A DNA stretch of 64,000 nt from Bryobacterales bacterium (GCA_965248235.1 CBDFIU010000004.1:1175112-1239111), one strand, 5' to 3'. Positions 7,107 to 46,465 are shown, counted from the stretch's first letter. Made by a program: numbers and translations. Notes: a model not told the origin generated them from the sequence alone.

Positions 7107-8424
7107 CTATCGCTTCAAGTTCAGCGCCTCTTGGTTCAACTCGTCGGCCGTGGTAATCACCCGCGAGTTGGCCTGGAAGCCTCGCTGAAACGTCAACAAA
7201 TTCGTGAACTCTTGGGCAATATCGACATTCGAGAACTCAAGCGATAGTCCGAGCACCGACCCGAGTCCTCCCGTGTTCGCCGGCCCGGTTACCGGGAGCC
7301 CTGAAGCCGAGGTCGGGACGTAGTTGTTGTTGCCGACCGAGAGAAGCGTCTGCGGGTTTGTAAAGCGCGCCAGTGAGAGCTGTGCCAAGGTCAAGGTTCT
7401 GCCGTCGCTGTCGAGGCCGTTGATTTTGCCGCCGTCGGCGATCGAAATCGAGGTCAACTGCGCGGGTGGCGAGCCGTCTTGCGCCAGGTCGGAGACCGAC
7501 GAATCGGTCGCGAAGTTCGTCAGTGTCGGTTGCAGCAACGAATCGAGCAGGCTCCAATCAATCTGCAAAGGGTCGGCGCCGTTGGCGAACGTGTAGCCGG
7601 CGGTCGTGGTATTGATGTCTTAATTGATAGGGATTCCCCGCACCATTGGGGTTGATGAGGATTCCCTTGCCATCGAACTCCATCGAAACAGCCGCGGGTA
7701 CGCCGCCGTCGATCAGAATGTTCGGATCGGTCGCGGGCGTGGCGTTCGATCCGTCGAGAACGTCATCCGCGGGGATCGTCACGGTTACGCTGAATTCCCC
7801 GGCGGCGCTAGTGGGCGGAATAACGGGAGTAAAGGTCAGCGTTAGAATGTGCGACTCGCCGAGCGAATCGAACACCTGCAGCGGCACGGTGAAGTCTGTC
7901 GTAAGGTTTTTCGACAGGTTCGCGGTGATACTGATTTCGGATGTAGTGTCCGGCTCGAGCGTGTCGTTGCCGGCCAAGCTGATGTCCGCAATGGGTAGGT
8001 TGGTGTTGACGACCTCGGTTGTTGGATTGCGGTTCCAGCCCTGCACGACTTCGCCGTTAATGGTGACCAACACACGTTCGGTGTTGAGTTGGAAGTTGCC
8101 GGCGCGGCTGTATTGGGTTAGATCGTTGTCCTTGACGATAAAGAAGCCCTCGCCTTGGATCGCGGCGTCGAGAAGGCCGCCGGTGTTTTGGACGGTACCT
8201 TGTTCGAAACGACGAGAGACGGTGATCGGCGCGACCCCGAGGCCCGCCTGCGAGGCAACGCCGGACCGACTCAAGCCGATTGTTTGATAAAAAAGGTCGC
8301 GAAACTCAGCTCGGCTTCCCTTGAAAGCGAATGTGTTGAGGTTGGCGAGGTTATTCGCGATCACCTCCACGGCTCGGGCATGAGAGCGAAGACCGGATAG
8401 AGCGGTTAGAAATGCACTGGGCAT
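7107..8424 (-). pseudogene. flgE: Flagellar hook protein FlgE, split by an apparent +1 frameshift
   Basis: ATG 8424 has AAGGAG 7 nt upstream and opens MPSAFLTALSGLRSHARAVEVIANNLANLNTFAFKG. This frame degenerates after ...NPNGAGNPYQL and stops at 7558. The hook C-terminus (DINTTTAGYTFANGADPLQIDW...FTNLLTFQRGFQANSRVITTADELNQEALNLKR) continues in the +1 frame from 7619. A TAA at 7622-7620 in that frame pins the shift to 7620-7623. Confidence 0.8.
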
Positions 8425-8533
8425 GGGAAGAAATCTCCTTACTTCAAATCTTCGGTTTGGTCTGTGTCTTATTGTTTGGATCGTTGCTATGTCAGCTGAA
8501 AGGAGGCGGCCCGCGATGACTTGCTCATTGGTT

Positions 8534-8836
8534 TCAGGCTTCGCTGTCAAGCGGAGCGGCCCGCGCTTCAGCCAAGGCGGCTTCGGCTTGGAGCAGGCCG
8601 TGAATGCCTTCCAGCGTCTTGCGCATCGCCAGCGTCTGCTCCATCTCGGAAAACTGGGCGAGCTGGGAGACGAACTGGGTTGGATCCATCGGGCTGAGCG
8701 GGTCCTGGTTTTGGATCTGCGCGATGAGCAGTTGCAAGAACATGTCGCGAGTAGTGTCGTTCGATGCGAGCGGGCGTCGAATCTGTTCCGTGTCGACGCT
8801 CGCCGCGGCGGTGGTGTCGGTTACCGAGCCTGTCAT
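8534..8836 (-). CDS. flgD: Hook capping/assembly protein FlgD (short form, N-terminal domain only)
   Basis: 100 aa carrying the FlgD N-domain motif (DMFLQLLIAQIQNQDPLSPMDPTQFVSQLAQFSEMEQ). AGGAGG lies upstream. It sits between fliK and flgE. Confidence 0.8.
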   Translation of the reverse strand: MTGSVTDTTAAASVDTEQIRRPLASNDTTRDMFLQLLIAQIQNQDPLSPMDPTQFVSQLAQFSEMEQTLAMRKTLEGIHGLLQAEAALAEARAAPLDSEA

Positions 8837-10947: not shown

Positions 10948-11712
10948 ATGGCGATTGCATTCGTCGCTGCAATGGATCAAGCACTATTGACGGTTGCGGC
11001 CGGAATGAAGGCGCGTCTCGAGACGCTCGACGTTCTGGGTAACAACATTGCCAATGCCTCGACGAATGCGTTCAAGGCCGATCGAGAGTTCTATCGTCTG
11101 TTCACGACCGAGCGGACCCGCTTTGGAGGCGAAGACGACCTATTAAGTCTCATGCCGGTGGTCGAGGCGTCTATCGTCGATTTTTCGCAGGGGCCGCTGA
11201 TGGCGACGGAATCTCCGCTTGACGTCGCTTTGTCGGGTCCGGGTTTCCTGGCGGTTCGTTCACCTGGGGGGACTCTCTACACGCGCAATGGAAGTCTGCG
11301 GCGATTAGTGAGTGGCCAACTGGCGACGGTTGATGGTTATGCGGTATTGGGAACCGACCAAAAAGGGATCGTGCTGCCGGAAAACGGCGAGGTACGGATC
11401 GAGCCCGACGGGCGGGTGCTTGTGGACGGGCTGGAAGCCGGCCAACTACGAGTAGTCGAATTCGAGGCGCCGAGGGCGCTTTCGAAGTCAGGGAATAACT
11501 ATTTCACCGCGGGCGAAGCCGCGGCGCCAAAACTGGCCGAGAGCACGGGCGTTCTGCAAGGGAGGCTTGAGGCCTCGAACATCAACGCCTCGGAAGAAGC
11601 GATCAACTTGATTACCGCCGGCCGTCACTTCGAGATGATGCGGCACATCGCGTCGCTGATCGGAGAGCAGATGAACGGTCGAGCGGTCGATGAATTGGGC
11701 CGAACGTCGTAG
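10948..11712 (+). CDS. flgF: Flagellar proximal rod protein FlgF
   Basis: The N-terminal rod motif (LETLDVLGNNIANASTNAFKADRE) and C-terminal motif (LQGRLEASNINASEEAINLITAGRHFEMM) are present. It lies immediately upstream of flgG. An alternative start is ATG 10972. Confidence 0.85.
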   Translation: MAIAFVAAMDQALLTVAAGMKARLETLDVLGNNIANASTNAFKADREFYRLFTTERTRFGGEDDLLSLMPVVEASIVDFSQGPLMATESPLDVALSGPGFLAVRSPGGTLYTRNGSLRRLVSGQLATVDGYAVLGTDQKGIVLPENGEVRIEPDGRVLVDGLEAGQLRVVEFEAPRALSKSGNNYFTAGEAAAPKLAESTGVLQGRLEASNINASEEAINLITAGRHFEMMRHIASLIGEQMNGRAVDELGRTS

Positions 11713-11774
11713 CGGAAACCGACGCGACAACTTGCGATTATCGACTCGCGGCCCATCGCAACAAAGGAGTTTTC

Positions 11775-12566
11775 ATGATTCGAGCACTTTTCAGCGCCGC
11801 CAGCGGCATGATCGCTCAGCAGATGAGCATTGACAATATCGCGAATAATCTCGCGAACGCCAACACCACTGGTTTCAAGCAGCGGCGCGTGCAGTTTCAA
11901 GATTTGCTTTATCAGAATTTGGTGGCGCCGGGTACGCAAGCCGGTCAACAGACGGTAGTGCCGTCGGGATTGCAGCTCGGTTTGGGGACACGCGTGGTTT
12001 CGAACGAAGTCATCTTCAAGCAGGGTGATTTCGTATCGACCACCAACCCGCTCGATGTCGTCATTCAGGGCAAGGGATTCTTTCAAGTAAGGCTGCCGAG
12101 TGGTGAATTGGCCTATACGCGGGCGGGGGCATTTCATGTCGACCGCGATGGGAACTTCGTGACTCCGAACGGCGACCCCCTCGAGCCGAACATCACGATT
12201 CCTCGAGAGGCTCTTGACATAATGATCGCCTCCGACGGCACCGTTAGCTATACGCAAGTCGGGCAGATCGAAGCGCAGCAGGGCGGCATCATTCAGCTAG
12301 CCGGTTTCCAAAACCCGGCCGGGCTGCTGGCGTTGGGAAAGAATCTGTTTCAGCCGACGCAGGCATTGGGCGATCCGGCGGTCGGATTGCCCGGCGGACA
12401 GGACGGACTGGGCAGTTTGCAGCAGGGGTTTCTTGAGAATTCCAACGTCAGCGTGGTCGAGGAATTCATCGCCATGATCATGAGCCAGCGCGCTTATGAA
12501 GCCAATGCCCGTGTTGTTCGTACGGCGGATGAGATGTACCAGGAAGCCAATTCGTTGAGCCGCTAG
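11775..12566 (+). CDS. flgG: Flagellar distal rod protein FlgG
   Basis: 263 aa: MIRALFSAASGMIAQQMSIDNIANNLANANTTGFKQRR...GFLENSNVSVVEEFIAMIMSQRAYEANARVVRTADEMYQEANSL. Confidence 0.93.
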   Translation: MIRALFSAASGMIAQQMSIDNIANNLANANTTGFKQRRVQFQDLLYQNLVAPGTQAGQQTVVPSGLQLGLGTRVVSNEVIFKQGDFVSTTNPLDVVIQGKGFFQVRLPSGELAYTRAGAFHVDRDGNFVTPNGDPLEPNITIPREALDIMIASDGTVSYTQVGQIEAQQGGIIQLAGFQNPAGLLALGKNLFQPTQALGDPAVGLPGGQDGLGSLQQGFLENSNVSVVEEFIAMIMSQRAYEANARVVRTADEMYQEANSLSR

Positions 12567-12580
12567 CTCAAGGAGGGGTC

Positions 12581-13570
12581 GTGAGTAAATTGATTTCCTT
12601 GACGAAAGCATCGGTGAGGTTTTTTGGCCGGCAGCGAAAATGGATTCGCCCCACGAGGGCGGTGTTTCTTGCCTTATTGACGTGCGGCGTCGTGTCGGCG
12701 TCGGAAACGGTTCGTCTGGCTCTTGACCACGACCGTGTAACGGCGGGCGACCTGGCTTCGGTTCTGCCGGGTTGGGGTGAGGTCGAACCCGCCCAGATGA
12801 TCGCCTATGCTCCGCTGCCCGGCATCGAACGGCGAGTGGGCGCAAGCCGCCTGATGGGCTGGGGGCGTCGCTTCGGCGTTGATCTGACCAGGGATGAAAT
12901 GCCCGAGGTGCTTTTGATCTCCCGTCACATGAGGACACTCGGACCGGCCGAGGCGGAGGAGCGGCTGCGTGAAGCCGTGGCCTCTTACTATCGCATCGAG
13001 CCGGGGACTGTCGAAGTAGTGCTCGTGGGATTCGAGGAGCTTCGCGTGCCTTCCGGTGATCTGAGCTTCGAAGCCGCCGGTTCATTCCAACGGTTGAATC
13101 GGCCCTCGTCGGTGGCGCTGCGATGGCGCGAGGAAGGTGGTCGCGGGGGAACACTCTGGCTACACGCGACGATTTCGATTGTCGGGCGATATGCCATAGC
13201 CCGGGAGAAGCTTCACGCCAAGGTCCCGCTGCGCTCCGAGGACTTCGAGTTTCGCGAAGGCCCCTTGCCGGGTAATCCTGAGAAATTTCTCATTTCACAT
13301 GAAGCAGTTGACGGAATGTCCTTGAAGTATTCATTGAATCGCGGAGACGCCTTAAGGACCGATCTATTGGTCAAGAATCGGGCGGTTCGCCGCGGGGATT
13401 TAATCGAGCTCCAGCTACGCTCGGGCCTGATTATGCTGCGGGTGCCGGGGCGCGCCGAGGAGGCCGCCGCCGTGGGTGACGTCATCGCGTGCCGCAACCT
13501 GGAGTCGGGTAGCCGGGTGTCGGCGCGTGTGTTGGATTCCAATCACGCCGAAGTGGAGTGGGCCCGATGA
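12581..13570 (+). CDS. flgA: P-ring assembly chaperone FlgA
   Basis: Signal/TM N-terminus plus a C-terminal FlgA-type beta domain (RGDLIELQLRSGLIMLRVPGRAEEAAAVGDVIACRNLESGSRVSARV). Position is between flgG and flgH. Confidence 0.78.
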   Translation: MSKLISLTKASVRFFGRQRKWIRPTRAVFLALLTCGVVSASETVRLALDHDRVTAGDLASVLPGWGEVEPAQMIAYAPLPGIERRVGASRLMGWGRRFGVDLTRDEMPEVLLISRHMRTLGPAEAEERLREAVASYYRIEPGTVEVVLVGFEELRVPSGDLSFEAAGSFQRLNRPSSVALRWREEGGRGGTLWLHATISIVGRYAIAREKLHAKVPLRSEDFEFREGPLPGNPEKFLISHEAVDGMSLKYSLNRGDALRTDLLVKNRAVRRGDLIELQLRSGLIMLRVPGRAEEAAAVGDVIACRNLESGSRVSARVLDSNHAEVEWAR

Positions 13571-14283
13571 GGGAGAGAAGTCGGGGGGCTAACTCGCGGA
13601 TCCGTGGGCGGTCGGCGGCTTGGATCGTGGTTTTGTGCGGAGTCGCGGCCGGCGTTTGCGCTGGGCAGTCGAGCGAGCAGACCCTGGAGCGGCACATTCA
13701 AGAATCGTTGAACTCGTCGGGCGGCGGGCGCTCTTCGAAAGGGTCGCTCTTCAACAGCCGGTCTTATCTGGCCGAATTGGGAAGGGACCCCAAAGCGGCG
13801 GTCGCTGGAGACTTGATCACGATTCGCGTCATCGAGCAAGCCAGCGCGTTGAGCAGCGGGTCGACATCATCTTCGCGGACGTCGGATGCGTCGAGTAGCG
13901 TTTCATCGTTGTTTGGGGTGCTGAATCCGGCGGGGGCGTTGGCGAATCTGGCACAGCACTCCGGGGAATCGACCCTTGACGGACGGGGAAGCACGACCCG
14001 GCAAACCAGCGTGACGGCGACGATCACAGCCCACGTTACGCATGTCATGCCCAGCGGAAACTTGGTGATTGAAGGCATTAAGGAAGTGATCGTAAATTCT
14101 GAAAAACAAACTGTTTGGATGAGAGGAATAGTCCGTCCCACCGATCTGGCCGCCGACAACAGCGTGCGGTCGGACCGAGTAGCGATGATGGAACTCCGCA
14201 TCAACGGCAAGGGTATTGTGAACGACGCTATACGCCGGCCGAACATATTGATGCGCGTCCTGAAAAAGATATTGCCGTTTTAG
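13558..14283 (+). CDS. flgH: Flagellar L-ring protein FlgH
   Basis: DLITIRVIEQASALSSG...ITAHVTHVMPSGNLVIEGIKEVIVNSEKQTVWMRGIVRPTDLAADNSV. An N-terminal signal with Cys is present. The start is uncertain (overlaps the flgA end). Confidence 0.87.
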   Translation: MGPMRERSRGANSRIRGRSAAWIVVLCGVAAGVCAGQSSEQTLERHIQESLNSSGGGRSSKGSLFNSRSYLAELGRDPKAAVAGDLITIRVIEQASALSSGSTSSSRTSDASSSVSSLFGVLNPAGALANLAQHSGESTLDGRGSTTRQTSVTATITAHVTHVMPSGNLVIEGIKEVIVNSEKQTVWMRGIVRPTDLAADNSVRSDRVAMMELRINGKGIVNDAIRRPNILMRVLKKILPF

Positions 14284-14284
14284 C

Positions 14285-14395
14285 TCCGTGTCGCCGAATC
14301 ACGTTTTGGCCGGGCTGAGCCGTGATTCGGAGCAACGTAATTCGGCGGCACGGCGACACGTAATTCGGCGAAACGTACCCAGTCGACACGAAAAA
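14285..14395. repeat. Family-1 short repeats plus hairpin in the flgH-flgI spacer
   Basis: 14285-14303 is the exact reverse complement of cgtgattcggcgacacgga at 3992-4010. A perfect 10-bp inverted repeat (ccgaatcacg 14294-14303 / cgtgattcgg 14321-14330) has a 17-nt loop. Degenerate ~15-nt units follow (attcggcggcacgg, cgacacgtaattcggcgaaacgtaccc). Confidence 0.7.
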
Positions 14396-14397
14396 CC

Positions 14398-15495
14398 ATG
14401 ACTTTGCTCAAACCGATGATTCCACTGCTTCTGCTGGCGACGCTTGCGCTGCCGGCTCCGGCCGCTCGCCTCAAGGATCTGGTATCCATTGAGGGTGTGC
14501 GTGACAACATGTTGATTGGATACGGGTTGGTCGTTGGACTCAATGGGACGGGTGACCGCCAGCAGACCGTTTTTTCAGCACAGAATTTGTCCAACCTATT
14601 ACAGAAAATGGGCGTCAACGTCGCACCTACCGCCCTGCGGGTCAACAACGTGGCCGCGGTGATGGTGACGGCCAACCTGCCGCCGTTTGCCACGCCGGGA
14701 ACGAAGATCGACTTGACCGTTTCCTCGATCGGCGACGCCGCGACATTGCAGGGCGGCACGCTGTTGCTGACTTCGATGAAGGCCGCGAATGGCGAAGTCT
14801 ACGCCGTCGGTCAGGGACCAGTGTCGATCGGAGGTTTCAGCGCGGGAACCGGCGGAACCGGAGTGCAGGTCAATCATCCGACCGTAGGACGCGTTCCCAT
14901 GGGTGCGACGGTCGAGAGGCCCGCCCCAACGGTTGAGCCGAATCCCGCCGGTTTCCGTTTGCAATTGCGGCGGCCTGATTTCGTGACAGCTTCGCGGTTG
15001 ACCGAAGTGTTGAACGGAAAGTTCGCCGGCACGGTGGCGAAGGCCGAAAACTCCGCCACGGTGTTGGTGACGATGCCCCAGGACTTCCGCGCTTACCCGG
15101 TCGAATTCATCGCGGCCATCGACGGCCTCGACGTGCCGACCGACAGGACGGCCGCGGTTGTGCTCAACGAGCGGACCGGAACGGTCGTCATCGGCAGCGA
15201 CGTGAGGGTCGCGCCCGTGGCGGTATTGCACGGGAATCTCACCGTCCAAGTCGTAACCGACTACGCCGTGTCGCAACCGGGACCGCTGTCGGGCGGACAA
15301 ACCGCGATCACACCGCAAGTCGGCGTGGAGGTGACCGAGGAGCAGGCGAGGCAAGTTTCGTTAAGAGAAGGAGCGAACGTCGAAGAGCTCGTCAAAGCCT
15401 TGATGTCGATCGGCTCGACGCCGCGCGACATCATCGCCATCATGCAGAGCATCGCCGCCGCAGGGGCGCTTGATGCCCGGCTGGAGGTGATCTGA
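14398..15495 (+). CDS. flgI: Flagellar P-ring protein FlgI
   Basis: 365 aa with a signal peptide, then RLKDLVSIEGVRDNMLIGYGLVVGLNGTGD...ANVEELVKALMSIGSTPRDIIAIMQSIAAAGALDARLEVI. Confidence 0.93.
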   Translation: MTLLKPMIPLLLLATLALPAPAARLKDLVSIEGVRDNMLIGYGLVVGLNGTGDRQQTVFSAQNLSNLLQKMGVNVAPTALRVNNVAAVMVTANLPPFATPGTKIDLTVSSIGDAATLQGGTLLLTSMKAANGEVYAVGQGPVSIGGFSAGTGGTGVQVNHPTVGRVPMGATVERPAPTVEPNPAGFRLQLRRPDFVTASRLTEVLNGKFAGTVAKAENSATVLVTMPQDFRAYPVEFIAAIDGLDVPTDRTAAVVLNERTGTVVIGSDVRVAPVAVLHGNLTVQVVTDYAVSQPGPLSGGQTAITPQVGVEVTEEQARQVSLREGANVEELVKALMSIGSTPRDIIAIMQSIAAAGALDARLEVI

Positions 15496-15499
15496 TTGG

Positions 15500-15530
15500 C
15501 CGTGAGCCGTGAGCGGTGAACCGTGAACCG
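15500..15530. repeat. Family-2 short repeat (CGTGARC heptamers) just 3' of flgI
   Basis: ccgtgagccgtgagcggtgaaccgtgaaccg. Related strings occur at 16007-16035 and 25206-25229, and inverted at 15641-15700. Confidence 0.65.
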
Positions 15531-15640
15531 AAGATGCTGCTGATCGGTTCCGGTATGGAATTCCGGGAAGCGTCGAGGTTACAGCGTCCGGGGCTCACCA
15601 CAACGGCAGGCACCACGCCGCGGCCGGAAGCGAGCGCTAG

Positions 15641-15700
15641 GTCGGCTGACGGTTAACGACTCACTGGTAATGGTTCACGATTAACCGCTAATCGCTCACG
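15641..15700. repeat. Family-2 short repeat, inverted orientation
   Basis: gtcggctgacggttaacgactcac (15641-15664) matches the reverse complement of 25206-25229 at 21 of 24 nt. It is followed by ggttcacg, ttaaccg and gctcacg, the complements of the heptamers at 15500-15530. Confidence 0.6.
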
Positions 15701-15709
15701 ACGCAAGCC

Positions 15710-16012
15710 ATGTCCATAATCGTCAACATTCCGAACCCAGCTGTCTCCTTATCCCCGCAAGGGGCGAAAAACTCTTCCGACCAGAGCCGCCAACGACTTG
15801 AAGCCGCCGCGAAGGAATTCGAGGCGATGATGATTCAGCAGTTGCTCAAGACGGCTCGCCAAGCCGGACGCCTCTACGAAAGCGCAGACGAAATGACCGA
15901 AGGCGAAGGCTACCTTGAGCTCGCCGAGCAGCAATTCGCCAAGGTCCTTGCCGAGAAGGGAACCTTCGGTTTCGCTCGCCTGCTGGTGAAAGATGTTCCG
16001 ATGGAACGGTGA
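15710..16012 (+). CDS. Rod-binding protein (FlgJ N-terminal domain only, no muramidase domain)
   Basis: 100 aa with the AAKEFEAMMIQQLLKTARQ motif typical of the FlgJ rod-binding domain. It is the last gene of the flgF-I operon. Confidence 0.7.
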   Translation: MSIIVNIPNPAVSLSPQGAKNSSDQSRQRLEAAAKEFEAMMIQQLLKTARQAGRLYESADEMTEGEGYLELAEQQFAKVLAEKGTFGFARLLVKDVPMER

Positions 16013-16035: not shown

Positions 16036-16142
16036 CGGCGGCTCCGCATGCCGGCGCGCCGCATTGGAGACTGGTCTAAGAACTTCGGCTCATGGCTCGC
16101 GGCCACACCCAACGGGCCGCGCGGTAAAATGTTCTTAATTCA

Positions 16143-19100
16143 GTGCCAACCTCTTCCGTCAAGGCCGCGGCCGTTGTCGCCGAGAAGCCTTCTGTTGCTC
16201 GTGATCTTGCTGACATCCTCGGCGCCCACAAACGCGGCGATGGATACCGTCACGGCAATGGCTACATCGTAACCTGGGCCATCGGCCATCTAGTCGCCCT
16301 CGCCGAGCCGCATGAGATGAATGCGGACTGGCGCGTTTGGCGACGCGACACGCTGCCGCTGTTGCCAAGCGAGTGGCCGCTGGTCGTCTACGAACAGAGC
16401 CGCGACCAGTTCGAGGTCGTGCGCAGAATTCTCACGAGCCCCAAGGTCGGCCGTGTCGTCGCCGCCACGGACGCCGGCCGCGAGGGCGAACTGATTTTTC
16501 GCTACATCTACGAAGCCGCCGGTTGCAACAAAGAAGTCGACCGCTTGTGGATCTCGTCACTGACACCCGACGCGATTCGAGAAGGTTTACGCACTCTGCG
16601 GCCTTCGAGCGCCTATGACCGCCTAGCCGACGCCGCGCGCGCCCGCAGTCGCGCCGATTGGCTGGTCGGGATGAACCTCTCGCGAGCCTATACCCTTGAC
16701 TGCAATGTGAATCTTTCCGTTGGGCGTGTACAAACACCGACGCTGGCGATGTTGGTCGAGCGGGAGCTGGCGATTCGGAATTTCTTAACTGAAGATTATT
16801 TGGAAGTTTTGGCGACGTTCGAGCCAGCCGAGAAAGCTGCCGAGGACGGCGCTTATCGCGGCACGTATTTTCAGCAAGGCGCCGAGAGCGAAACGGGGAC
16901 AGAGGCGGCCTCGGAGAAACTCACCCCGGCTGAAGGTCAAGACGCGAAGTCATCCCACGAGGCGAAACGCGATACGCGGCTCCCCGCCGACGGGGAGCTT
17001 GCGCAACAGATCATCGGGCGCGCGCGGGCCGGTGATGCGCGCATCGAGTCGATCGAGCGCGAGACGAAGCGCATTGGCCCGCCGCGTTTCTACGACCTCA
17101 CCGAGTTGCAACGTCACGCGAATCGGCTCTACGGTTTCAGCGCGAAACGAACTCTCGAATTGGCACAGACGCTTTACGAAAAGCACAAGCTGCTGACCTA
17201 CCCGCGTACCGACAGCCGACATTTGTCCAAGGATGTGGCGGCGACCCTCGACCAAGTCGTCGCGGCCGTCGCCGAGCCCTATCAGGATGCGCTCGCCCCC
17301 GGGACCGGCAGCCGACCGCTGAACCGGCGCTTCGTCGACGACGCCAAGGTCAGCGATCACCACGCCATTATTCCCACGACGGTGCGGTCGTCGCTCCCGG
17401 CGGGCGGCGACGAGGCGAAGATCTACGATCTGGTTTGCCGACGTCTGCTGAGCGCTTGGCACAAGGACCACATTCTCGCGGTGACTAATGTGATCACCTC
17501 CGTGACGTCACCGGGTGAAGACGGGTCGGAACTGATGGTTGACCGCTTTTTCAGCTCCGGCACGTCGGTCGAGCAGGCGGGCTGGAAAGTGCTGGACGCT
17601 CCGTTCCCGAGAACAGGCGTTTCGTCTCGCGGGTCCGGACAGGAACCGCAACAGCAACTGCCCGCCGGACTTGCCGAAGGGCAACCGCGACTTGTGAGCG
17701 ACGCCGAGGCTGTGACGAAGAAAACTCGGCCGCCGCGGCGTTTCACGGAAGGCACGTTGCTGACGGCGATGGAATCCGCCGGGAAGACCCTCGAGGAAAA
17801 GGAGCTTTCCGACGCGATGAAAGATCGCGGGCTGGGCACCCCCGCCACGCGCGCCGCGATTATTGAAACGTTACTGCGGCGCGAATACATCGCCCGAAAG
17901 GGCAAGTCTCTCGAAGCATTGGAGAAAGGGATTCAGTTGATCGGCTCGGTGCACCCGGCGGTTAAGAGTCCGGCCATGACGGGGGAATGGGAAGCCGAAT
18001 TGCGCAAGATGGAACGCGGCGAGGTGGAGTTTGACAGCTTTATGAGGCGCATCGAAGACTATGTCCGAGAGGTTGTCGGCGGTCCGAGAGCTAAACCCTT
18101 CGAGGGCCTTCCCGCCAAGGCGATGCGTGAGCCACAAGCGGCCGCGGCGGCGCATGTGGGAACCCGCGGGGCAGCCGGTTTCGAGCAAGCGCCGGCGATT
18201 ACCGCTCCGATTCCCTCTGTCGGCCCGGGCCCGCCCGCCGACGCGAGTAACGGCCACGTTGTGCAAGCATCCGCGGGCGGGAATGTGCCTGCCCGCAATG
18301 GGAAGTGGACCGGCGATCTACTCGACCTGTTGCAATCGGCCTTCGGTTTTGAAGGGTTTCGGAAGTATCAACAGGATGTGTGCGAGGCCGTGCGGGGCGG
18401 GAGGGACGTCCTGCTGGTGATGCCGACCGGGGCCGGAAAATCGCTCTGCTACCAGCTACCCGGGTATGCCCGCGAGGGGGTGACGCTTGTAGTCAGCCCG
18501 TTGATCGCGCTGATGGAAGACCAAGTCGGGAAGCTGAAGCAGATGGGCTTTCGCGCCGAGCGCATTCATTCGGGGCGTGACCGTGAGGCGAGCCGTGAAG
18601 TTTGCTTTCGCTACCTGGCGGGTGATCTCGATTTTCTCTTTATTGCCCCGGAGCGGCTGGCGGTGCCCGGCTTTCCCGAAATGCTCGCTAAGCGCACTCC
18701 GGCGCTGATCGCCATCGACGAAGCCCATTGCATTTCCCAATGGGGACATGATTTTCGCCCCGAGTACCGGCGACTTGGGGAGCGGCTGCCGATGCTGCGG
18801 CCCGCGCCTGTGATCGCCATGACGGCGACGGCGACGCCTCTGGTCCAAGACGACATCGCCGAACAATTGGCGTTGGAAAACGGGCTGCGATCGATTCACG
18901 GTTTTCGCCGTGAAAACATCGCGGTGGAAGTGGTTGAACTGACGCCGAGTCAGCGGCCCCCGGCGGTGGCAAAATTGCTGGAGGATGCCGCGCGGCGTCC
19001 GGCGATCGTTTATGCGCCGACCAGAAAGTCGGCCGAGGCGGTGGCGGCGGAGCTATCCGCGCTGTTTCCCGCCGCCGCCTATCACGCCGGGATGCTGCCG

Positions 19101-20363
19101 CGGGTGCGCGACCAAGTGCAGGCGGGCTTTCTGGGGGGCGGGTATGAAGTGATTGTCGCGACGATCGCTTTCGGGATGGGGATTGACAAACCCGATGTCC
19201 GCACGGTTGCTCATACGGGTTTGCCGGGCAGTATCGAAGCCTACTATCAGGAAATCGGCCGCGCCGGCCGCGACGGCAAGCCTTCCCGGGCCGTGCTGAT
19301 GTATTCTTGGTCGGACCGCAAGACCCACGAATTTTTTCACGAACGTGACTACCCGCCGATCGCCGAGCTGGAGGAGATCTACAAACAACTTCGCGCCGAG
19401 CCCGAACCGCGACGCAATATCGAGCGTCGCTTGAAGATGGACCCGATTGTCTTTGAAAAGGCGATCGAGAAATTGTGGATTCAAGGTGGCGCGCTGATCG
19501 ATCCGGAGGAAAATATTCAACGCGGCCGCGACGGTTGGAAGCCGGGCTATCAGAGACAGTCCGACCACAAGCTGGGTCAGCTCGATCATATTGTTCACTT
19601 CGCCGAGGCGAATGAGTGTCGGATGTTGGAGCTGGTACGACACTTCGGCGACCAAGAAGACTCGCAAAAGCCGTGCGGCGTGTGTGACATCTGCGCTCCC
19701 GAGGCGTGCGTCGTACAGCGCTACCGTTCACCGAGCGCCGAGGAAAAGATCGCTATTGACGACATGGTCAAGACCCTCAAGGCGCGCGACGGCCTCTCCG
19801 TCGGCCGCCTCCACGAGCAGGCGCTGTCGGCGGCGCTGCTGGAGCGTAAGGCGTTCGAAAAATTGCTGGCGGGAGCGGCCCGCGCCGGTCTTGTCAAGAC
19901 GGTTGTCGACGCCTTCGAGAAAGAGGGTCGTCGCATTGAATACCGGCGCGTTTTCTTGAGCGAGGAGGGCCGAAGTCTGACGACGTCGGCGGGGGATTTC
20001 GTGACCTTGGCCGCCGAGGCCCCTCGGGCGCCGCGCAAGAGAAAGAAGAAGGCGGCGAAGCGGAAGGTTGCCGCGACGGGCAAACGCCGAGCGAAGGCCG
20101 CGGCGGGGGCGGCGGCTCCTGATGGGATGTCGGAAGCGCGCGCCGACGCTGATTTGATCGAGCGGCTGCGGAATTGGCGTTTGATCCAAGCGAGAGTGCA
20201 ACGCACGCCGGCGTTTCGGGTGTTTCCCGATCGTACTCTCCACGCCATTGCCCGCTACCACCCCGCGAACGAGGCGGAGTTGTTGCAAGTTCCTGGCATT
20301 GGTCCGCGCCTGGCGGGCAAGTTCGGGAAGACGATTCTTGCGATTGTGGCTGGTAAGAAGTAG
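16143..20363 (+). CDS. Fusion protein: type IA DNA topoisomerase (Topo III-like) + RecQ helicase (with zinc-binding, RQC-like and HRDC regions)
   Basis: One 1406-codon ORF. Topo IA part: VAEKPSVARD, ATDAGREGELIFRYIY, LLTYPRTDSRHL (Tyr353 at 17199-17201). An Ala/Pro/Gly-rich linker covers about 18060-18300. RecQ part: FGFEGFRKYQ, MPTGAGKS, DEAHCISQWGHDFRPEY, CRM...CGVCDIC, and a C-terminal HRDC (RTPAFRVFPDRTLHAIARYHPANEAELLQVPGIG). Confidence 0.9.
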   Translation: MPTSSVKAAAVVAEKPSVARDLADILGAHKRGDGYRHGNGYIVTWAIGHLVALAEPHEMNADWRVWRRDTLPLLPSEWPLVVYEQSRDQFEVVRRILTSPKVGRVVAATDAGREGELIFRYIYEAAGCNKEVDRLWISSLTPDAIREGLRTLRPSSAYDRLADAARARSRADWLVGMNLSRAYTLDCNVNLSVGRVQTPTLAMLVERELAIRNFLTEDYLEVLATFEPAEKAAEDGAYRGTYFQQGAESETGTEAASEKLTPAEGQDAKSSHEAKRDTRLPADGELAQQIIGRARAGDARIESIERETKRIGPPRFYDLTELQRHANRLYGFSAKRTLELAQTLYEKHKLLTYPRTDSRHLSKDVAATLDQVVAAVAEPYQDALAPGTGSRPLNRRFVDDAKVSDHHAIIPTTVRSSLPAGGDEAKIYDLVCRRLLSAWHKDHILAVTNVITSVTSPGEDGSELMVDRFFSSGTSVEQAGWKVLDAPFPRTGVSSRGSGQEPQQQLPAGLAEGQPRLVSDAEAVTKKTRPPRRFTEGTLLTAMESAGKTLEEKELSDAMKDRGLGTPATRAAIIETLLRREYIARKGKSLEALEKGIQLIGSVHPAVKSPAMTGEWEAELRKMERGEVEFDSFMRRIEDYVREVVGGPRAKPFEGLPAKAMREPQAAAAAHVGTRGAAGFEQAPAITAPIPSVGPGPPADASNGHVVQASAGGNVPARNGKWTGDLLDLLQSAFGFEGFRKYQQDVCEAVRGGRDVLLVMPTGAGKSLCYQLPGYAREGVTLVVSPLIALMEDQVGKLKQMGFRAERIHSGRDREASREVCFRYLAGDLDFLFIAPERLAVPGFPEMLAKRTPALIAIDEAHCISQWGHDFRPEYRRLGERLPMLRPAPVIAMTATATPLVQDDIAEQLALENGLRSIHGFRRENIAVEVVELTPSQRPPAVAKLLEDAARRPAIVYAPTRKSAEAVAAELSALFPAAAYHAGMLPRVRDQVQAGFLGGGYEVIVATIAFGMGIDKPDVRTVAHTGLPGSIEAYYQEIGRAGRDGKPSRAVLMYSWSDRKTHEFFHERDYPPIAELEEIYKQLRAEPEPRRNIERRLKMDPIVFEKAIEKLWIQGGALIDPEENIQRGRDGWKPGYQRQSDHKLGQLDHIVHFAEANECRMLELVRHFGDQEDSQKPCGVCDICAPEACVVQRYRSPSAEEKIAIDDMVKTLKARDGLSVGRLHEQALSAALLERKAFEKLLAGAARAGLVKTVVDAFEKEGRRIEYRRVFLSEEGRSLTTSAGDFVTLAAEAPRAPRKRKKKAAKRKVAATGKRRAKAAAGAAAPDGMSEARADADLIERLRNWRLIQARVQRTPAFRVFPDRTLHAIARYHPANEAELLQVPGIGPRLAGKFGKTILAIVAGKK

Positions 20364-20419
20364 GGAGCGATGGGGCTCCGCCGCTATCCGCCGCTGACAC
20401 CATCCGACGTGAGGGCATC

Positions 20420-20635
20420 TTGCTGAAGCTCGGATTCAAGATGAAACGACAGGAAGGTTCCCACTCGCACTATGAAAGGCCTCCAGACGAGGTGGTTAAT
20501 CAACGGCGAATCGTAACGGTGGACACGGCGCACGCACAGTTCAGTCGCCGATTGATAAAGAGCATGATCGAGCAGTCGGGATTCACGAGGCGGGAATTCT
20601 ACTCGGCCACCAAGCGAACGGCCAAGAAGATCTAG
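20420..20635 (+). CDS. hicA: HicA-like mRNA interferase toxin (possibly 5'-frameshifted)
   Basis: LKLGFKMKRQEGSHSHYERP...VTVDTAH matches the HicA GSH core. The expected N-terminal helix (MGLRRYPPLTPSDVRA) is encoded from ATG 20372 in another frame that stops at 20426-20428. That implies a 1-nt indel near 20415-20420, or use of TTG 20420. Confidence 0.6.
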   Translation: MLKLGFKMKRQEGSHSHYERPPDEVVNQRRIVTVDTAHAQFSRRLIKSMIEQSGFTRREFYSATKRTAKKI

Positions 20636-20712
20636 CCCGCATTTCTCATCGCCTGACGGCCTCTCATGCACTTTGCCTCGCCACGCGATAAGAAAAGCGG
20701 GCCAGGGAAGGG

Positions 20713-21117
20713 CTAGGGACAGTGCTGCAAGCGCCCGCTGGGTTCGTAGGTCAAGGAGTGGTTGTGCGATTCGTGGCGGCGGATTTTTCGTTTCAAGGAG
20801 TGCCAATAATAACGGATCCATCGACTTGCCGGCGCGGGACGCAACACTAACCCGTTTGCGTCTCCCTCAAATGCGATCGAGAGATACCCGGACATGGCTT
20901 CCTGGAGACGCTGAATTGCGTTTTCAGGGGTGGGGCCCTCCGAAATGAGGTTCAGATCGAGACACTCCGCAACGTAGGTCGAGCCGGATTTGTAGTAGAA
21001 GGCGCGAAGAGGATGAGCCGTACCGCAGTCCGCGCATTGCAAGGTGGGCACCTTGATAAGCAAAGCTCCACAGCTGGAACAACGATGTGCCACGCGAGTG
21101 CTCGCCTCCTGCGTCAT
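20713..21117 (-). CDS. Zinc-ribbon + HicB-like (UPF0150-type) domain protein
   Basis: From ATG 21117: MTQEASTRVAHRCSSCGALLIKVPTLQCADCG, then YYKSGSTYVAECLDLNLISEGPTPENAIQRLQEAMSGYL, which resembles the HicB N-terminal fold. It is convergent with hicA, not co-oriented. Confidence 0.4.
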   Translation of the reverse strand: MTQEASTRVAHRCSSCGALLIKVPTLQCADCGTAHPLRAFYYKSGSTYVAECLDLNLISEGPTPENAIQRLQEAMSGYLSIAFEGDANGLVLRPAPASRWIRYYWHSLKRKIRRHESHNHSLTYEPSGRLQHCP

Positions 21118-25278: not shown

Positions 25279-28101
25279 CTATAACCCGCCGCCGATTGGG
25301 GCGGCCGGTCCACCGGTTTGCTGAACCCGCAACCCCGGGGGCAGGTCGACTGTCACATGCTCGTGAATGGGCTGCCGCTCGTTGTTGTCTTCAGGACTGA
25401 GTCGGCGAATGCGGGCGGTGATGGTTTGGGAGGCTTCGTCGGCCTTGAAGCGCCGGAAGAGCGTCTCCTCGCGGTCGGCGCTTTCGGCGTCGCCGAGACC
25501 GCGGTAGCAGAGCATTCGCGTGTAATGCATCTGTAGGTCTTCCGGATCGATGCGCGCCACGCGGTCAAGCACGTCGAGCGCGTCCTGGTATTGGCGCTTG
25601 CGGAAGAGAATCTGCGCGATCTCGTTGAGAACCACGCGATCTTTCGGATACGTACTCTCGGCCTTTCGCAGCGAAGCCAGAGCGCCGTCATAGTCGCCCT
25701 CGGCGCGTTGCACTTTCGAGTGAAAGAAATGAATCCGCCCTAAACTGTCGTCGATGGCCAGGGCGCGTTGAACGAACGGTTTCGCGGCCTCGGTTTGGCC
25801 CTCCTGAATCAAAGCGCGGGCGATATTGAGCCAACCGTCGGCAAAGTCGGGGTTAGCTTCGGTGACGCGTTGGAAGGCGTACTCCGCGCCTTTGAGATCG
25901 CCCTGACGCAGCAGACCGATCCCGTAGTCATTCCAGCGTGTGTAGTCCTCTCGGGTGACCCTCGGTCCCCAGTCGGTTTCCTGACGCCCCAAATGGATTT
26001 CGGCTTCAGCCGCGGCCAGCGCGACGATCGGCAGCGTCGGGATCCTGTCCTTGATCTGCCCGGCAACATTGGCGGGGATGTTTTCGGGCAGGAAAAGAAA
26101 GCGGCGGTCATCGAAATCTTTGCCGAAGGGGGAATCGTCGGCCGGGTCCGGTTGCCCGGCATAGGAAAACTGCGTGTAATAGTGCGAAAATTTGCGGTAG
26201 TTGAGTTTTGCCAAGAGACGAATCGGACCTTGCGCGTCGGGCGGTATTGTCATGCGGAAGTGCGCCGTGTCGGCCGCGCCCGGGGGAATCAACTGCGCGT
26301 AAAGCAGGCTGCGCGCCTGGAAGGCGTTGCGCTTGTTGATCGGGTTGCTGTGTTCGTCGAGCAAGAAGGCGCGGTAAAAGTGCGCGCCCGGCTCGACCGG
26401 TCCGCGGCCGTCGTCCTCGACCTTTCCGCTCCAGTAGATGATGCGTCCGGTTGCGTCGACCGCCTGCAGTTCAACCCAGACGTCAAATGAATCGACCGTA
26501 CCGCCGGGGAAAAAATGCCCGACCTTGCGCGTGCGGACGACGACATCCACCTTGACGTTGTCGCCGGGGGCGAGAACCGGCGCGGCGCGATCAATCGGCG
26601 CGGCGATCTCGCCGACTTCCCGCAGCACAACCGACCGGGCGCCGCTCTCAGCCTCCTCGCCCACCGCGAAACCGGTGGACAACATCGGCGTTTCGCCCGC
26701 CCGCCGGCGCATCGAAACCGAGGCGTCATCCTCTTCGACCGGCGAGACGGCGAAAATATCGACGGTCACGATACCGTCCTGAAGAAACTTCTTCACGACG
26801 TCAAGCTGCACTTGGTCTTGGTTCACGTACGGCACGGCGGTGTTCGCGGCCGGGAAACGATGCGAATGCACGTAGCCGTCGATGTTGCCCGGGTCGCCGG
26901 AAGCGACCAGCGGCATGTGGCAATCGCCGCAGTCGGCGGACTGCTCGGGATAGTAGAACGACCTCGCCCCGAAACCCGAGACGCCGCTCGCCTGCCACGA
27001 GTCGTACTCATTGAAACCGCGGAACCAGCGGTAATTGTTGACCGGCACGTCGAGATGCACTTTGTGGCACGTCGAGCAAAACTCCGACTTATCGAGGCGC
27101 ATGAAGGGCTTCATGAACGCATTGCGATGAGCGGCCGGAGCGGTGTTGATGACGTAATCGTGCAGCGAGCGAATCAGCCAATTGTCGCTCGACATCAGGT
27201 CATGCAGCGGCGGATAGGTCATTGTGAAACCGCCGTTGCCCATGGTGTTGGGGACGTGTGTAATCGAATGGCAGGACATGCAACCGAGCCCGGCTTGAGC
27301 CTCCGGCGTGTCAATTTGATCCTTCGCCGGCTTCTCAAAGCGCCCGTTGAAAAACATCGCGTGGTCGTGGCACCCGGCACACCACTTCGAGGCCTCAATC
27401 CCCGCCGTCTCCTGCATGTACTCAATGGACTTGCGGTAGAACTGATTGTTGAACGACGAGAAATGGTGCATCGAACTGTTCCACTGCTCGTAGATGTCTT
27501 CGTGGCACGCGCCGCAAACCTTCGAGTCCATGAAAAAGCCTGACGGAATCAGGCCGCCGGTGTTGGTGACGGACGCGGAAGGAAAAAAGGGGCTGTCACG
27601 GCCGCCGCCCTCGTAGTCCATGCTGAGGGGCGCGGTGTTGGGATTGATGATGCGGTCTTCGGCGCGCGGGAACCATTCCAGGCGCACCGAACTGATCACG
27701 GGCAGAGCCAGAGCGGCGCCCAACGCGATCGCCAACAAGCGCGCAAAACTTCGCCGGCTCTTCCAAGCCCAAAGGATGACCAGCAACGCCCCGAGGAAGC
27801 CGAAAGCTCCGTGCGCGATAACGATCGATTGGTTGGGCCGCGTGGCGCCGACGACGCACAGCACCGAGCCGAGCGCGGCCGCCGCCGAGACGCTGGCGAG
27901 CGCGAGCCGTCCATTCTTACGCAGCGCCGCGACGGCGTCTTCGCGCAGCACCCAAACGCCGGCGGTGAGGGCCAACCCGAGGCCGATGTGGACCAGAACG
28001 CTCGTCAGGTAGGCGACGCTGGCTTCGGGGAAGGCCCAGATCCAGCCCGAGTTTACGACGAGAAAAAGAAAGCCGACGGCAACTGCTCGAGACTTGCTCA
28101 C
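25279..28101 (-). CDS. Membrane-anchored multihaem c-type cytochrome with C-terminal TPR repeats
   Basis: 940 aa with 4-5 N-terminal TM helices and five CXXCH motifs (CGACH, CAGCH, CMSCH, CSTCH, CGDCH). TPR-like repeats lie in the last ~250 aa. The GTG start overlaps the upstream stop as GTGA at 28098-28101. Confidence 0.8.
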   Translation of the reverse strand: MSKSRAVAVGFLFLVVNSGWIWAFPEASVAYLTSVLVHIGLGLALTAGVWVLREDAVAALRKNGRLALASVSAAAALGSVLCVVGATRPNQSIVIAHGAFGFLGALLVILWAWKSRRSFARLLAIALGAALALPVISSVRLEWFPRAEDRIINPNTAPLSMDYEGGGRDSPFFPSASVTNTGGLIPSGFFMDSKVCGACHEDIYEQWNSSMHHFSSFNNQFYRKSIEYMQETAGIEASKWCAGCHDHAMFFNGRFEKPAKDQIDTPEAQAGLGCMSCHSITHVPNTMGNGGFTMTYPPLHDLMSSDNWLIRSLHDYVINTAPAAHRNAFMKPFMRLDKSEFCSTCHKVHLDVPVNNYRWFRGFNEYDSWQASGVSGFGARSFYYPEQSADCGDCHMPLVASGDPGNIDGYVHSHRFPAANTAVPYVNQDQVQLDVVKKFLQDGIVTVDIFAVSPVEEDDASVSMRRRAGETPMLSTGFAVGEEAESGARSVVLREVGEIAAPIDRAAPVLAPGDNVKVDVVVRTRKVGHFFPGGTVDSFDVWVELQAVDATGRIIYWSGKVEDDGRGPVEPGAHFYRAFLLDEHSNPINKRNAFQARSLLYAQLIPPGAADTAHFRMTIPPDAQGPIRLLAKLNYRKFSHYYTQFSYAGQPDPADDSPFGKDFDDRRFLFLPENIPANVAGQIKDRIPTLPIVALAAAEAEIHLGRQETDWGPRVTREDYTRWNDYGIGLLRQGDLKGAEYAFQRVTEANPDFADGWLNIARALIQEGQTEAAKPFVQRALAIDDSLGRIHFFHSKVQRAEGDYDGALASLRKAESTYPKDRVVLNEIAQILFRKRQYQDALDVLDRVARIDPEDLQMHYTRMLCYRGLGDAESADREETLFRRFKADEASQTITARIRRLSPEDNNERQPIHEHVTVDLPPGLRVQQTGGPAAPIGGGL

Positions 28102-45429: not shown

Positions 45430-46465
45430 GATGGGTATTTACTTGACTCAGGTGACCACAAGATGTAGGATCGGGGAAATGGAAGATTATCCTCGGAATC
45501 TGGCCGAGTTCGAGGCGCGTTTCGCCACCGAGCAGGCCTGTCGAGAGTATCTGTGTCAACTCCGCTGGCCGGAGGGTTTTCGTTGTCCGCGATGCGGGCA
45601 CGACAAAGCGTGGGCGGTGCGGACAGCGCTGCTGGAGTGCGCCGGCTGCGGGCATCAAGCTTCTCCAACGGCGGGCACAATATTTCAAGACACCCGCCAA
45701 CCCCTCCAGAGTTGGTTTCGAGCCATGTGGTGGCTCACGAGCCAGAAGAACGGGGCGAGCGCGCTGGGCTTGCAGCGGGTGTTGGGCCTGGGCAGCTACA
45801 AAACGGCCTGGACTTGGTTGCATAAGCTCCGGCGCGCCATGGTGCGGCCCGGACGCGATCGGCTCAGCGGGCGCGTGGAGGTTGACGAGACTTACTTAGG
45901 AGGCTTGGAGGAGGGCGTGCGCGGTCGCCAAACCGACGCTAAGGCGCTGATTGTAGTAGCGGCCGAGGAAGATGGTGCCGGCATCGGGCGGGTTCGGATA
46001 CGCACCATTCCCAACGCCTCCGGGGACAGCTTGATGGCCTTCGTCGGCGAGTCGATCGAACCCGGCAGCGTGGTCCATACCGACGGTTGGCTGGGATACG
46101 AACCGCTCGAAGGCGACGGCTATCGCCACGAGGTGAGCTACCTGGAGGGGCAACCGGCGCGCGCCTCGAAACTGCTCCCCCGGGTGCACCGCGTGGTGTC
46201 GTTAGTGAAGCGCTGGATACTGGGCACGCATCAAGGAGCGGTCAGTCACGAGCATCTCGACTCCTACCTCGACGAATTCGCCTTCCGCTTCAACCGCCGC
46301 AAGTCCAGAAGTCGAGGCAAGCTCTTTTACCGCCTGGTTCAACAGGCCGTCGCCGTGCCACCGGCACCCTACAAATCGCTGGTCGGAGGCACCGCGACAC
46401 GCGCTACGGACGACCACAACATGTAGGGGCTATTTCCCAATACCTGAGTCAAGTAAATACCCATC
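45430..46465 (+). mobile_element. IS1595-family insertion sequence, copy 2
   Basis: Same 1036-bp element and the same 24-bp inverted repeats. Perfect 8-bp direct repeat tgggtttg at 45422-45429 and 46466-46473. Confidence 0.92.
45479..46426 (+). CDS. IS1595-family transposase (copy 2)
   Basis: The translation is identical to copy 1. Confidence 0.88.
   Translation: MEDYPRNLAEFEARFATEQACREYLCQLRWPEGFRCPRCGHDKAWAVRTALLECAGCGHQASPTAGTIFQDTRQPLQSWFRAMWWLTSQKNGASALGLQRVLGLGSYKTAWTWLHKLRRAMVRPGRDRLSGRVEVDETYLGGLEEGVRGRQTDAKALIVVAAEEDGAGIGRVRIRTIPNASGDSLMAFVGESIEPGSVVHTDGWLGYEPLEGDGYRHEVSYLEGQPARASKLLPRVHRVVSLVKRWILGTHQGAVSHEHLDSYLDEFAFRFNRRKSRSRGKLFYRLVQQAVAVPPAPYKSLVGGTATRATDDHNM

Follow-up and report, generated by a model that had tools for sequence, protein, structure and literature searches.

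RecQ-family helicases work together with type IA topoisomerases in organisms that range from bacteria to humans (the Bloom syndrome complex is one example), and there is still debate over the way in which their activities are coordinated on DNA (PMC8191776). A gene located within a 64,000-nucleotide stretch of DNA from a Bryobacterales bacterium (GCA_965248235.1, CBDFIU010000004.1:1175112-1239111; this whole stretch is referred to below as the window) raises the question of whether some bacteria make both partners as a single polypeptide. An initial annotation of the window, made from the sequence alone, had described the product of this gene as a complete Topo III-like type IA topoisomerase fused to a complete RecQ helicase, and had suggested that it could act as a single-chain double-Holliday-junction dissolvase or decatenase. 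Here we address (i) whether the gene is intact and the fusion genuine; (ii) whether both halves of the protein are complete and conserved; and (iii) what the joined protein is likely to do.

The gene is a single uninterrupted open reading frame (ORF) at 16143-20363 on the plus strand, with 1406 codons and a stop codon, exactly as the initial annotation had reported. An in-frame stop codon (TAA, 16125-16127) lies upstream, and GTG 16143 is the only ATG, GTG or TTG candidate that precedes the TOPRIM glutamate; this GTG is therefore the only possible start. The gene and the parts of its product are as follows (window coordinates; aa, amino acid residues; pLDDT, predicted local distance difference test score; E. 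coli, Escherichia coli):

16143-20363 (+): whole fused gene, 1406 codons plus stop, GTG start, limited by the stop codon at 16125-16127
16170-16559 (+): TOPRIM domain (aa 10-139), Pfam PF01751, aligned to E. coli Topo III
16614-18044 (+): type IA core domains II-IV (aa 158-634) with Tyr353; Pfam PF01131, NF005829, TIGR01056 and Foldseek
16827-16991 (+): variable low-complexity insertion in domain II (aa about 229-283), no counterpart in the E. coli Topo III alignment
17775-17828 (+): segment aligned to the decatenation loop (aa about 545-562), matching residues 502-519 of E. coli Topo III
18081-18314 (+): Ala/Pro/Gly-rich disordered linker (aa about 647-724), unconserved, low pLDDT
18324-19319 (+): RecQ helicase core (aa 728-1059) with motif 0, Walker A (18420-18443), DEAH (18717-18728) and motif VI
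19317-19535 (+): winged-helix-like insertion of the RecQ subfamily (aa about 1059-1131), between the helicase core and the Zn module
19536-19700 (+): Zn-binding module (aa 1132-1186) with C1159, C1178, C1181 and C1184; Pfam PF16124
19737-19958 (+): winged helix with a long beta-hairpin in the RQC position (aa 1199-1272), from the predicted structure
20025-20096 (+): Lys/Arg-rich disordered patch (aa about 1295-1318), from the sequence and a pLDDT of 44-56
20148-20348 (+): HRDC domain (aa 1336-1402); Pfam PF00570, 66.0 bits against a threshold of 23.8

The same architecture recurs well beyond this genome. The best 120 clusters in a collection of 5.8 billion proteins comprise proteins of 1312-1533 aa that are 56-94% identical to the query; all of them (120 of 120) are fused, and the Pfam annotation precomputed for these clusters matched both the topoisomerase and the RecQ half. 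Their source labels include 'DNA topoisomerase 3' and point to Thermoanaerobaculia, Acidobacteriota and Bryobacteraceae metagenome-assembled genomes (MAGs). In a genome scan that covered one genome per species, close relatives were encoded at 28 loci, those in Bryobacterales being 80-93% identical, and the other loci lie in further Acidobacteriota, including Ca. Multivoradales (Thermoanaerobaculia), and in one Gemmatimonadales MAG. The fusion is also present in cultured Myxococcota (Nannocystis exedens, N. pusilla, N. punicea, N. bainbridge and Minicystis rosea), in two of which, N. punicea (CP114040) and M. rosea (CP016211), it is carried on a complete chromosome, and a divergent fused member was found in a Zetaproteobacteria MAG. 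Bryobacterales OZ250179 is a further complete genome with the fusion. An exhaustive search with residues 207-1406 against 1.84 billion representatives clustered at 50% identity returned, among its best 150 hits, at least 45 clearly fused proteins and about 19 fragments that span the junction, with identities down to 32%. The architecture is common in Acidobacteriota and Myxococcota, not rare, and the proposal that it is a single-polypeptide fusion is upheld by the 120 fused clusters and the complete genomes of cultured strains, which together represent several phyla. The soil Acidobacteriota and Myxococcota that carry the fusion are, we presume, mesophiles. For the conservation analyses described below we used an alignment of 138 sequences, composed of the query, the 120 clusters and 17 of the genome loci.

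Since all of the best clusters are fused, and complete genomes of cultured strains carry the fusion as well, a lost stop codon or a misassembly is ruled out as its cause. Six loci did at first appear to be split, and nothing apart from frame breaks in a few related loci hinted at an artefact. However, the breaks in L006, L017, L018 and L028 sit within domains, in assemblies that appear to be long-read MAGs, while the break in the linker of L024 is a masked run of N and L022 proved to contain a full fused ORF of 1421 aa. A genuine stop codon or frameshift in the linker, which the initial annotation had proposed looking for in related genomes, was found at none of the loci examined. The probability that two neighbouring genes, topB and recQ, were joined through an error in sequencing or assembly, or through the recent loss of a stop codon, is consequently negligible.

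The N-terminal half is a full Topo III-like type IA topoisomerase, a point on which curated hidden Markov models, the alignment to known structures and the predicted fold agree with the initial annotation. Pfam models Toprim (36.7 bits) and Topoisom_bac (338.7 bits) scored above their gathering scores, and residues 10-652 satisfied the curated Topo III models, with scores of 638 for NF005829 (DNA topoisomerase 3; cut-off 597) and 555 for TIGR01056 (topB; cut-off 516). Residues 12-652 align with residues 5-610 of E. coli Topo III (E about 4e-89), in a register that places E14 and K15 on E7 and K8, D110 and E114 on D103 and E107, and Y353 on Y328. The motif VAEKPSVARD contains the TOPRIM glutamate E14, followed by K15 (codons at 16182-16187); ATDAGREGE corresponds to residues 108-116, with the codons of D110-A-G-R-E114 at 16470-16484; and LLTYPRTDSRHL includes Tyr353 (17199-17201), which aligns to the catalytic Tyr328 of E. 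coli Topo III and is invariant in its YPR(T/S)D context. All of the motifs that the initial annotation had quoted were found at the places given there; the numbering of the TOPRIM glutamate had to be corrected from 13 to 14. The lysine that follows this glutamate is described as strictly conserved in Topo III (PMC10969213), and the E14-K15 pair, which includes this lysine, is at least 90% conserved across the family.

In an AlphaFold2 model of residues 1-1200, computed from a 92-sequence alignment, the topoisomerase half has a pLDDT of about 85-90. A Foldseek search with the model ranked the E. coli Topo III structures 2o59, 1i7d and 1d6m at the top (E about 1e-41, template modelling (TM) score 0.72), ahead of the RecQ catalytic core, indicating the four-domain toroidal fold. 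The low-complexity insertion in domain II is variable: the region that brackets it (aa 222-290) ranges from 38 to 103 aa over the family, with a conservation of 0.28, and residues 248-273 have a pLDDT below 50.

Residues 728-1402 constitute a complete RecQ-family helicase. Motif 0 (FGFEGFRKYQ) occupies residues 734-743, Walker A (MPTGAGKS) residues 760-767 and DEAHCISQWGHDFRPEY residues 859-875. Residues 728-1059 align with residues 15-345 of E. coli RecQ (1oyw; E 2.8e-92), and residues 1143-1186 with its Zn-binding region (364-405). The Pfam models DEAD (741-898, 90.4 bits) and Helicase_C (941-1045, 68.9 bits) both exceeded their gathering scores, as did the RecQ family model TIGR00614 its cut-off (376, cut-off 220), and the scores against the canonical RecQ equivalogs stayed below theirs (TIGR01389, 483 against 640; NF008279, 386 against 1015). 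Foldseek superimposed the predicted structure on the catalytic core of RecQ (1oyw) with E 6.5e-30 and a root-mean-square deviation (rmsd) of 2.7 A, and in the structural alignment the core is about 38% identical to that of E. coli RecQ.

The helicase core and the Zn module are separated by about 84 aa, as opposed to about 19 aa in E. coli RecQ, which corresponds to an insertion of about 65-70 aa. In every one of the 138 family members this region (aa 1059-1143) measures 85-90 aa; its conservation is 0.65-0.76, and the insertion is modelled as compact helices and a beta-hairpin that resemble a winged helix (1059-1127, pLDDT 94-98). Judged by its sequence, the RecQ half belongs to a distinct RecQ subfamily that bears this insertion. 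The Zn module was recognised by RecQ_Zn_bind (PF16124) at residues 1137-1184 (35.5 bits, gathering score 25). The domain in the RQC position, which is predicted to consist of three helices and two long strands (pLDDT 88-96), was not matched by the Pfam RQC model; Foldseek related the C-terminal modules to the Zn, winged-helix and HRDC region of BLM (E 2.7e-6, about 297 columns, with a low global TM score). The region around the basic patch (aa 1290-1336) varies from 28 to 117 aa over the family. Finally, the HRDC domain is predicted as five helices and superimposes on the HRDC domains of E. coli (1wud) and Deinococcus radiodurans (2rhf) RecQ with an rmsd of 1.0 A and TM scores of 0.82-0.86. 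The motif 0, Walker A, Zn cysteines, basic patch and HRDC named in the initial annotation are all present, and the claim of a full RecQ is supported by profile models, by the alignment to 1oyw and by the predicted fold.

The residues expected to carry out catalysis are conserved in both halves. Invariant in all 138 sequences are D110, A111, G112, R113, E114, Y353, P354 and R355 in the topoisomerase and, in the RecQ half, the Walker A GxGKS, DEAH, TATAT, the four Zn cysteines and the motif VI sequence QEIGRxGRD. At the position of E14, 136 of the 138 sequences have this residue and the other two have gaps. In pattern searches of 29 full-length divergent representatives (down to 36% identity), the YPRTD tyrosine context, Walker A and DEAH were matched in every protein and the acidic motif in every protein except P0203; for the E-K pair a narrow pattern was used, which gave no match in six of the 29. 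Such residue conservation indicates that both active sites are under strong purifying selection. Furthermore, the divergence of one half is correlated with that of the other (Mantel r 0.57, a value reached in 0 of 2000 permutations). This co-divergence fits inheritance of the fusion as a unit, and a shared species phylogeny alone would give the same result.

Between the halves lies the Ala/Pro/Gly-rich linker, which we place at about residues 647-724 (18081-18314), close to the position of about 18060-18300 estimated initially. Its conservation is only 0.24-0.26, its length ranges from 30 to 398 aa across the family, no Pfam model matched within it, and residues 654-720 have a pLDDT of 22-35 in the AlphaFold2 model. 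Both halves are predicted with confidence (mean pLDDT 80.9 for residues 1-1200, and 83.6 for a second model that covers residues 1040-1406). However, the predicted TM score (pTM) for residues 1-1200 is only 0.52, and therefore no fixed geometry between the halves is predicted; no solved chain that covers both halves was among the Foldseek results. As modelled, the long disordered linker argues for tethering of the two enzymes over their tight coupling.

In the two Nannocystis loci L016 and L023 the linker is 365-398 aa long and contains at least ten degenerate repeats with a recurring '...PRR...[GSR]DLF[AEDG]' motif, which we take to resemble the short peptides that bind the beta-clamp or other hub proteins. 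Nothing similar to these repeats is present in the linker of the window protein.

The RecQ subfamily also occurs without the topoisomerase. Stand-alone proteins of 660-750 aa (among them P0153, P0157 and P0258), which begin with a methionine and a short leader, contain the insertion, the Zn module and the HRDC domain, and such insertion-bearing RecQs are 38-54% identical to the RecQ half (BLASTP); they share its architecture but lack the topoisomerase half. Since these stand-alone RecQs carry the same insertion, the insertion is a trait of the RecQ subfamily, and the idea that it might be a docking module specific to the fusion, comparable to the latch of reverse gyrase, is ruled out. A neighbour-joining tree of the RecQ halves was star-like, with fused and stand-alone proteins interleaved, and supports a single clean origin of the fusion neither way; repeated fusion and fission, poor resolution of the topology and gene-calling artefacts would each produce such interleaving, and the tree does not distinguish among them.

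Members of the same subfamily were also seen behind other N-terminal partners: in P0160 and P0173 the partner is a Ser/Thr kinase, accompanied by Sel1 repeats in the former only, and in P0204 it is DUF790. In three related MAGs labelled 'delta proteobacterium' (L006, L012 and L018), DUF790 is encoded by a gene of its own (about 7400-8580, minus strand), which lies about 1.5 kb upstream of Topo-RecQ. P0269, a divergent fused relative in the NCBI database (1193 aa, 30-36% identity by BLASTP), has intact topoisomerase residues, while Walker A and DEAH have been lost from its RecQ half, which neither the DEAD nor the Helicase_C Pfam model matches; in this protein the topoisomerase appears to have kept a catalytically dead helicase, likely as a DNA-binding module. 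P0251 (919 aa) consists of a Topo III core, a long basic linker and an end that looks HRDC-like by sequence, and has no helicase core.

Since both enzymes are complete, their active sites are under strong selection, and the tether that joins them is long, variable and disordered, we favour, with a probability of roughly 70%, the interpretation that the protein is a tethered single-chain RecQ-Topo III 'dissolvasome' and decatenase. In known dissolvasomes, which consist of a RecQ-family helicase and Topo III, the helicase provides branch migration and single-stranded DNA (ssDNA) and the topoisomerase provides torsional relief and decatenation (PMC8191776), and the HRDC domain is required for double-Holliday-junction unwinding (PMC1616949). 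By analogy, the RecQ half, with its two winged-helix modules, Zn module and HRDC domain, would recognise branched or gapped DNA and would use ATP for unwinding or branch migration, thereby exposing ssDNA; the tethered Topo III half would then cleave this ssDNA via Tyr353, pass a strand through the break and reseal it. Hemicatenanes, double Holliday junctions, precatenanes and converging replication forks could in this way be unlinked without crossovers. The fusion would fix a 1:1 stoichiometry and raise the local concentration of topoisomerase at the ssDNA made by the helicase, and would not make a rigid allosteric machine of the two enzymes. The enzymatic activities, the substrates and the cooperation of the halves are what we infer here. 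The initial suggestion that the protein could be a single-chain dissolvase or decatenase is thereby kept as a probable reading, in which the linker suggests a tether and not the tight coupling of two activities.

The systems that the protein would most resemble are E. coli RecQ with TopB, Sgs1-Top3-Rmi1 and BLM-TOP3A-RMI1/2, which employ the same enzyme families and in which strand passage is likewise expected to be fed by ssDNA. In Sgs1, Top3 and Rmi1 are bound by the disordered N-terminus of the helicase (PMC3905885), the same side on which the topoisomerase is found here. However, those systems are non-covalent complexes, whereas the fused protein is a single covalent polypeptide for which no RMI-like OB-fold partner is evident. 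It further differs from the E. coli pair in that its RecQ has an additional winged helix and scores below TIGR01389, and in that its Topo III belongs to the NF005829/PRK07726 subfamily, with the DAGRE motif and a non-basic loop segment.

Some observations weigh against the tethered dissolvasome. The middle aspartate of the DxDxE motif (D105 in E. coli) is replaced by Gly112, giving D110-A-G112-R-E114. As the DAGRE motif is invariant in 138 of 138 family members, this replacement is a trait of the subfamily and not a sign of decay. The segment in the position of the decatenation loop, a loop that in E. coli Topo III is essential for decatenation (PMC8191776), has the right length and a conservation of 0.86 but is acidic or neutral, not basic. 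Lastly, apart from DUF790 in one deltaproteobacterial lineage, no recurring partner gene was found in the flanks, and hence there is no pointer to a pathway.

Among the alternatives, it is conceivable, although we consider it unlikely, that the two halves are independent and that the fusion provides only co-expression or co-localisation of two repair enzymes, with no hand-off between them. The unconserved, disordered linker of 30-398 aa and the pTM of 0.52, with no confident geometry between the halves, would suit this explanation, as would the occurrence of the same RecQ subfamily on its own or joined to a Ser/Thr kinase or DUF790, and the retention of the topoisomerase in P0269 after its helicase motifs were lost. 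However, mutual stimulation of RecQ and Topo III occurs even when the two are not joined (PMC8191776), both active sites are invariant across phyla, and the halves co-diverge. Somewhat more doubtful still is the opposite extreme, in which the fusion replaces separate TopB and RecQ as a processive, ATP-driven single-chain dissolvase or decatenase with an emergent property, such as translocation-coupled strand passage or ATP-dependent supercoiling, and in which the winged-helix insertion would serve junction recognition or communication. A related and improbable explanation is that of a convergent, reverse-gyrase-like machine in mesophiles, with an emergent ATP-driven activity such as directional supercoiling. 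Reverse gyrase is likewise a natural single chain of a superfamily 2 (SF2) ATPase and a type IA topoisomerase, so that the same two enzyme classes are joined, and PICH together with TRR (a translocase with Topo III-alpha) can make positive supercoils (PMC8191776). Against this, the domain order is the opposite one, the reverse gyrase model TIGR01054 reached 104 bits, well below its cut-off of 472, and matched the topoisomerase part only, and no solved reverse gyrase was among the top 50 fold matches; the initial annotation was therefore right to separate the protein from reverse gyrase by domain order and by the nature of the helicase. The helicase-like module of reverse gyrase is minimal, with a latch and without Zn, winged-helix or HRDC modules, and its halves are tightly packed. 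By comparison, the helicase described here is a complete unwinding-type RecQ that has all of these modules, and a long disordered linker and low pTM take the place of a rigid interface and latch. In reverse gyrase, the helicase-like domain is N-terminal and the topoisomerase C-terminal, and the enzyme is specific to thermophiles (PMC2504306), whereas the fused protein has the opposite order and is found in soil Acidobacteriota and Myxococcota.

The protein was also matched over residues 6-1330, with 1669 bits, by PADLOC model PDLC02865 (1499 positions), which is labelled 'DpdF', and this match is the one observation that favours a role in anti-phage defence, as DpdF of the Dpd 7-deazaguanine DNA-modification and restriction system or as part of another helicase-based system. 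DpdF, too, is an SF2 helicase that resembles RecQ, and the architecture covered by this one uncurated PADLOC sub-model is that of the complete fusion. However, the curated DpdF model NF041063 scored 197 bits, far below its cut-off of 550. DpdF is expected together with dpdA-K and que genes, whereas the neighbours of the fused gene are flagellar and housekeeping genes, and no Dpd, TGT or Que proteins were found among the window neighbours or among 92 flanking ORFs at 11 diverse loci. No plasmid record contains the junction, and a full-text literature search returned no paper that links DpdF to a topoisomerase fusion. The context and the curated cut-off largely refute the defence-island or Dpd explanation at the window locus, and we consider a defence role very improbable; PDLC02865 appears to be a homology sub-cluster of RecQ-like helicases that captured the fused family.

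In the tethered dissolvasome that we favour, the partnership of RecQ and Topo III would have become covalent, and the protein would stand as a counterpart to reverse gyrase in which the domains are in reverse order and the helicase is a complete RecQ. As a natural 1:1 fusion, it provides independent evolutionary evidence for a functional partnership of the two enzymes in bacteria. It also gives single-molecule and structural studies of dissolution and decatenation a simple system that consists of one protein, and is a second natural fusion of a helicase and a type IA topoisomerase to contrast with reverse gyrase. Since the partnership that it joins is already well established, we regard it as an attractive experimental system rather than a shock. 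Neither full-text searches of the non-subscription literature nor a targeted check of the type IA topoisomerase reviews PMC9369019 and PMC10969213 turned up a natural fusion of Topo III with RecQ that had been described or characterised. This agrees with the initial annotation, which was aware of no characterised example. The same annotation had considered that the architecture might prove to be common and already studied: it is common in some phyla, but no characterisation was found. The architecture is abundant in public data, where databases name the protein after one half, as 'DNA topoisomerase 3' or 'RecQ family helicase', and it is apparently uncharacterised, although a brief earlier mention is possible. 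For annotation, such naming covers one half only, and the DpdF label of the defence library adds a risk of false defence calls, as PDLC02865 could mislabel housekeeping Topo-RecQ genes as defence genes where the context of the system is not enforced.

The gene lies among chromosomal housekeeping genes and not in a defence island or on a plasmid. Upstream lies a flagellar rod and ring operon (10948-16012) that encodes two FlgF/G-type rod proteins, FlgA, FlgH, FlgI and a weak FlgJ-like rod-binding ORF; downstream follow, in this order, a small ORF on the opposite strand, a 2-hydroxyacid dehydrogenase, a MiaB/RimO-like methylthiotransferase and Sua5/YrdC. This gene order is common only to close Bryobacterales relatives, with the flagellar order kept in L001 and L010. 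A plasmid or mobile origin was considered and rejected in view of this housekeeping synteny in close relatives and the lack of any plasmid record that spans the junction. No second topoisomerase or RecQ is encoded within the 64-kb window, and scans of the window for tRNAs and Rfam families returned nothing.

No obvious Shine-Dalgarno sequence was seen upstream of GTG 16143. The hexamer TAAAAT (16125-16130), which resembles a -10 element, lies 12 nt 5' of the GTG start and was not flagged by a consensus promoter scan. From this -10-like position and the missing Shine-Dalgarno sequence, the leader of the fused gene might be very short. At the 3' end, the fused gene and the small opposite-strand ORF (145 aa, 20384-20821, minus strand) are convergent; this small ORF had no Pfam or PADLOC match, and a counterpart (64% identical) was present in L001 only.

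Elsewhere in the window, a 940-aa ORF (25279-28101, minus strand) has cytochrome c554/MtrC-like signatures of a multihaem protein at about aa 195-400 and TPR repeats at its C-terminus. An IS1595-type transposase (DDE_Tnp_IS1595 with a Zn ribbon; 45431-46426, plus strand) lies beside a DDE_Tnp_1/DUF4372 transposase (46548-47717, minus strand), and this pair coincides with the sole marked dip in G+C content of the window (0.564 at 46-48 kb, compared with about 0.62 elsewhere).

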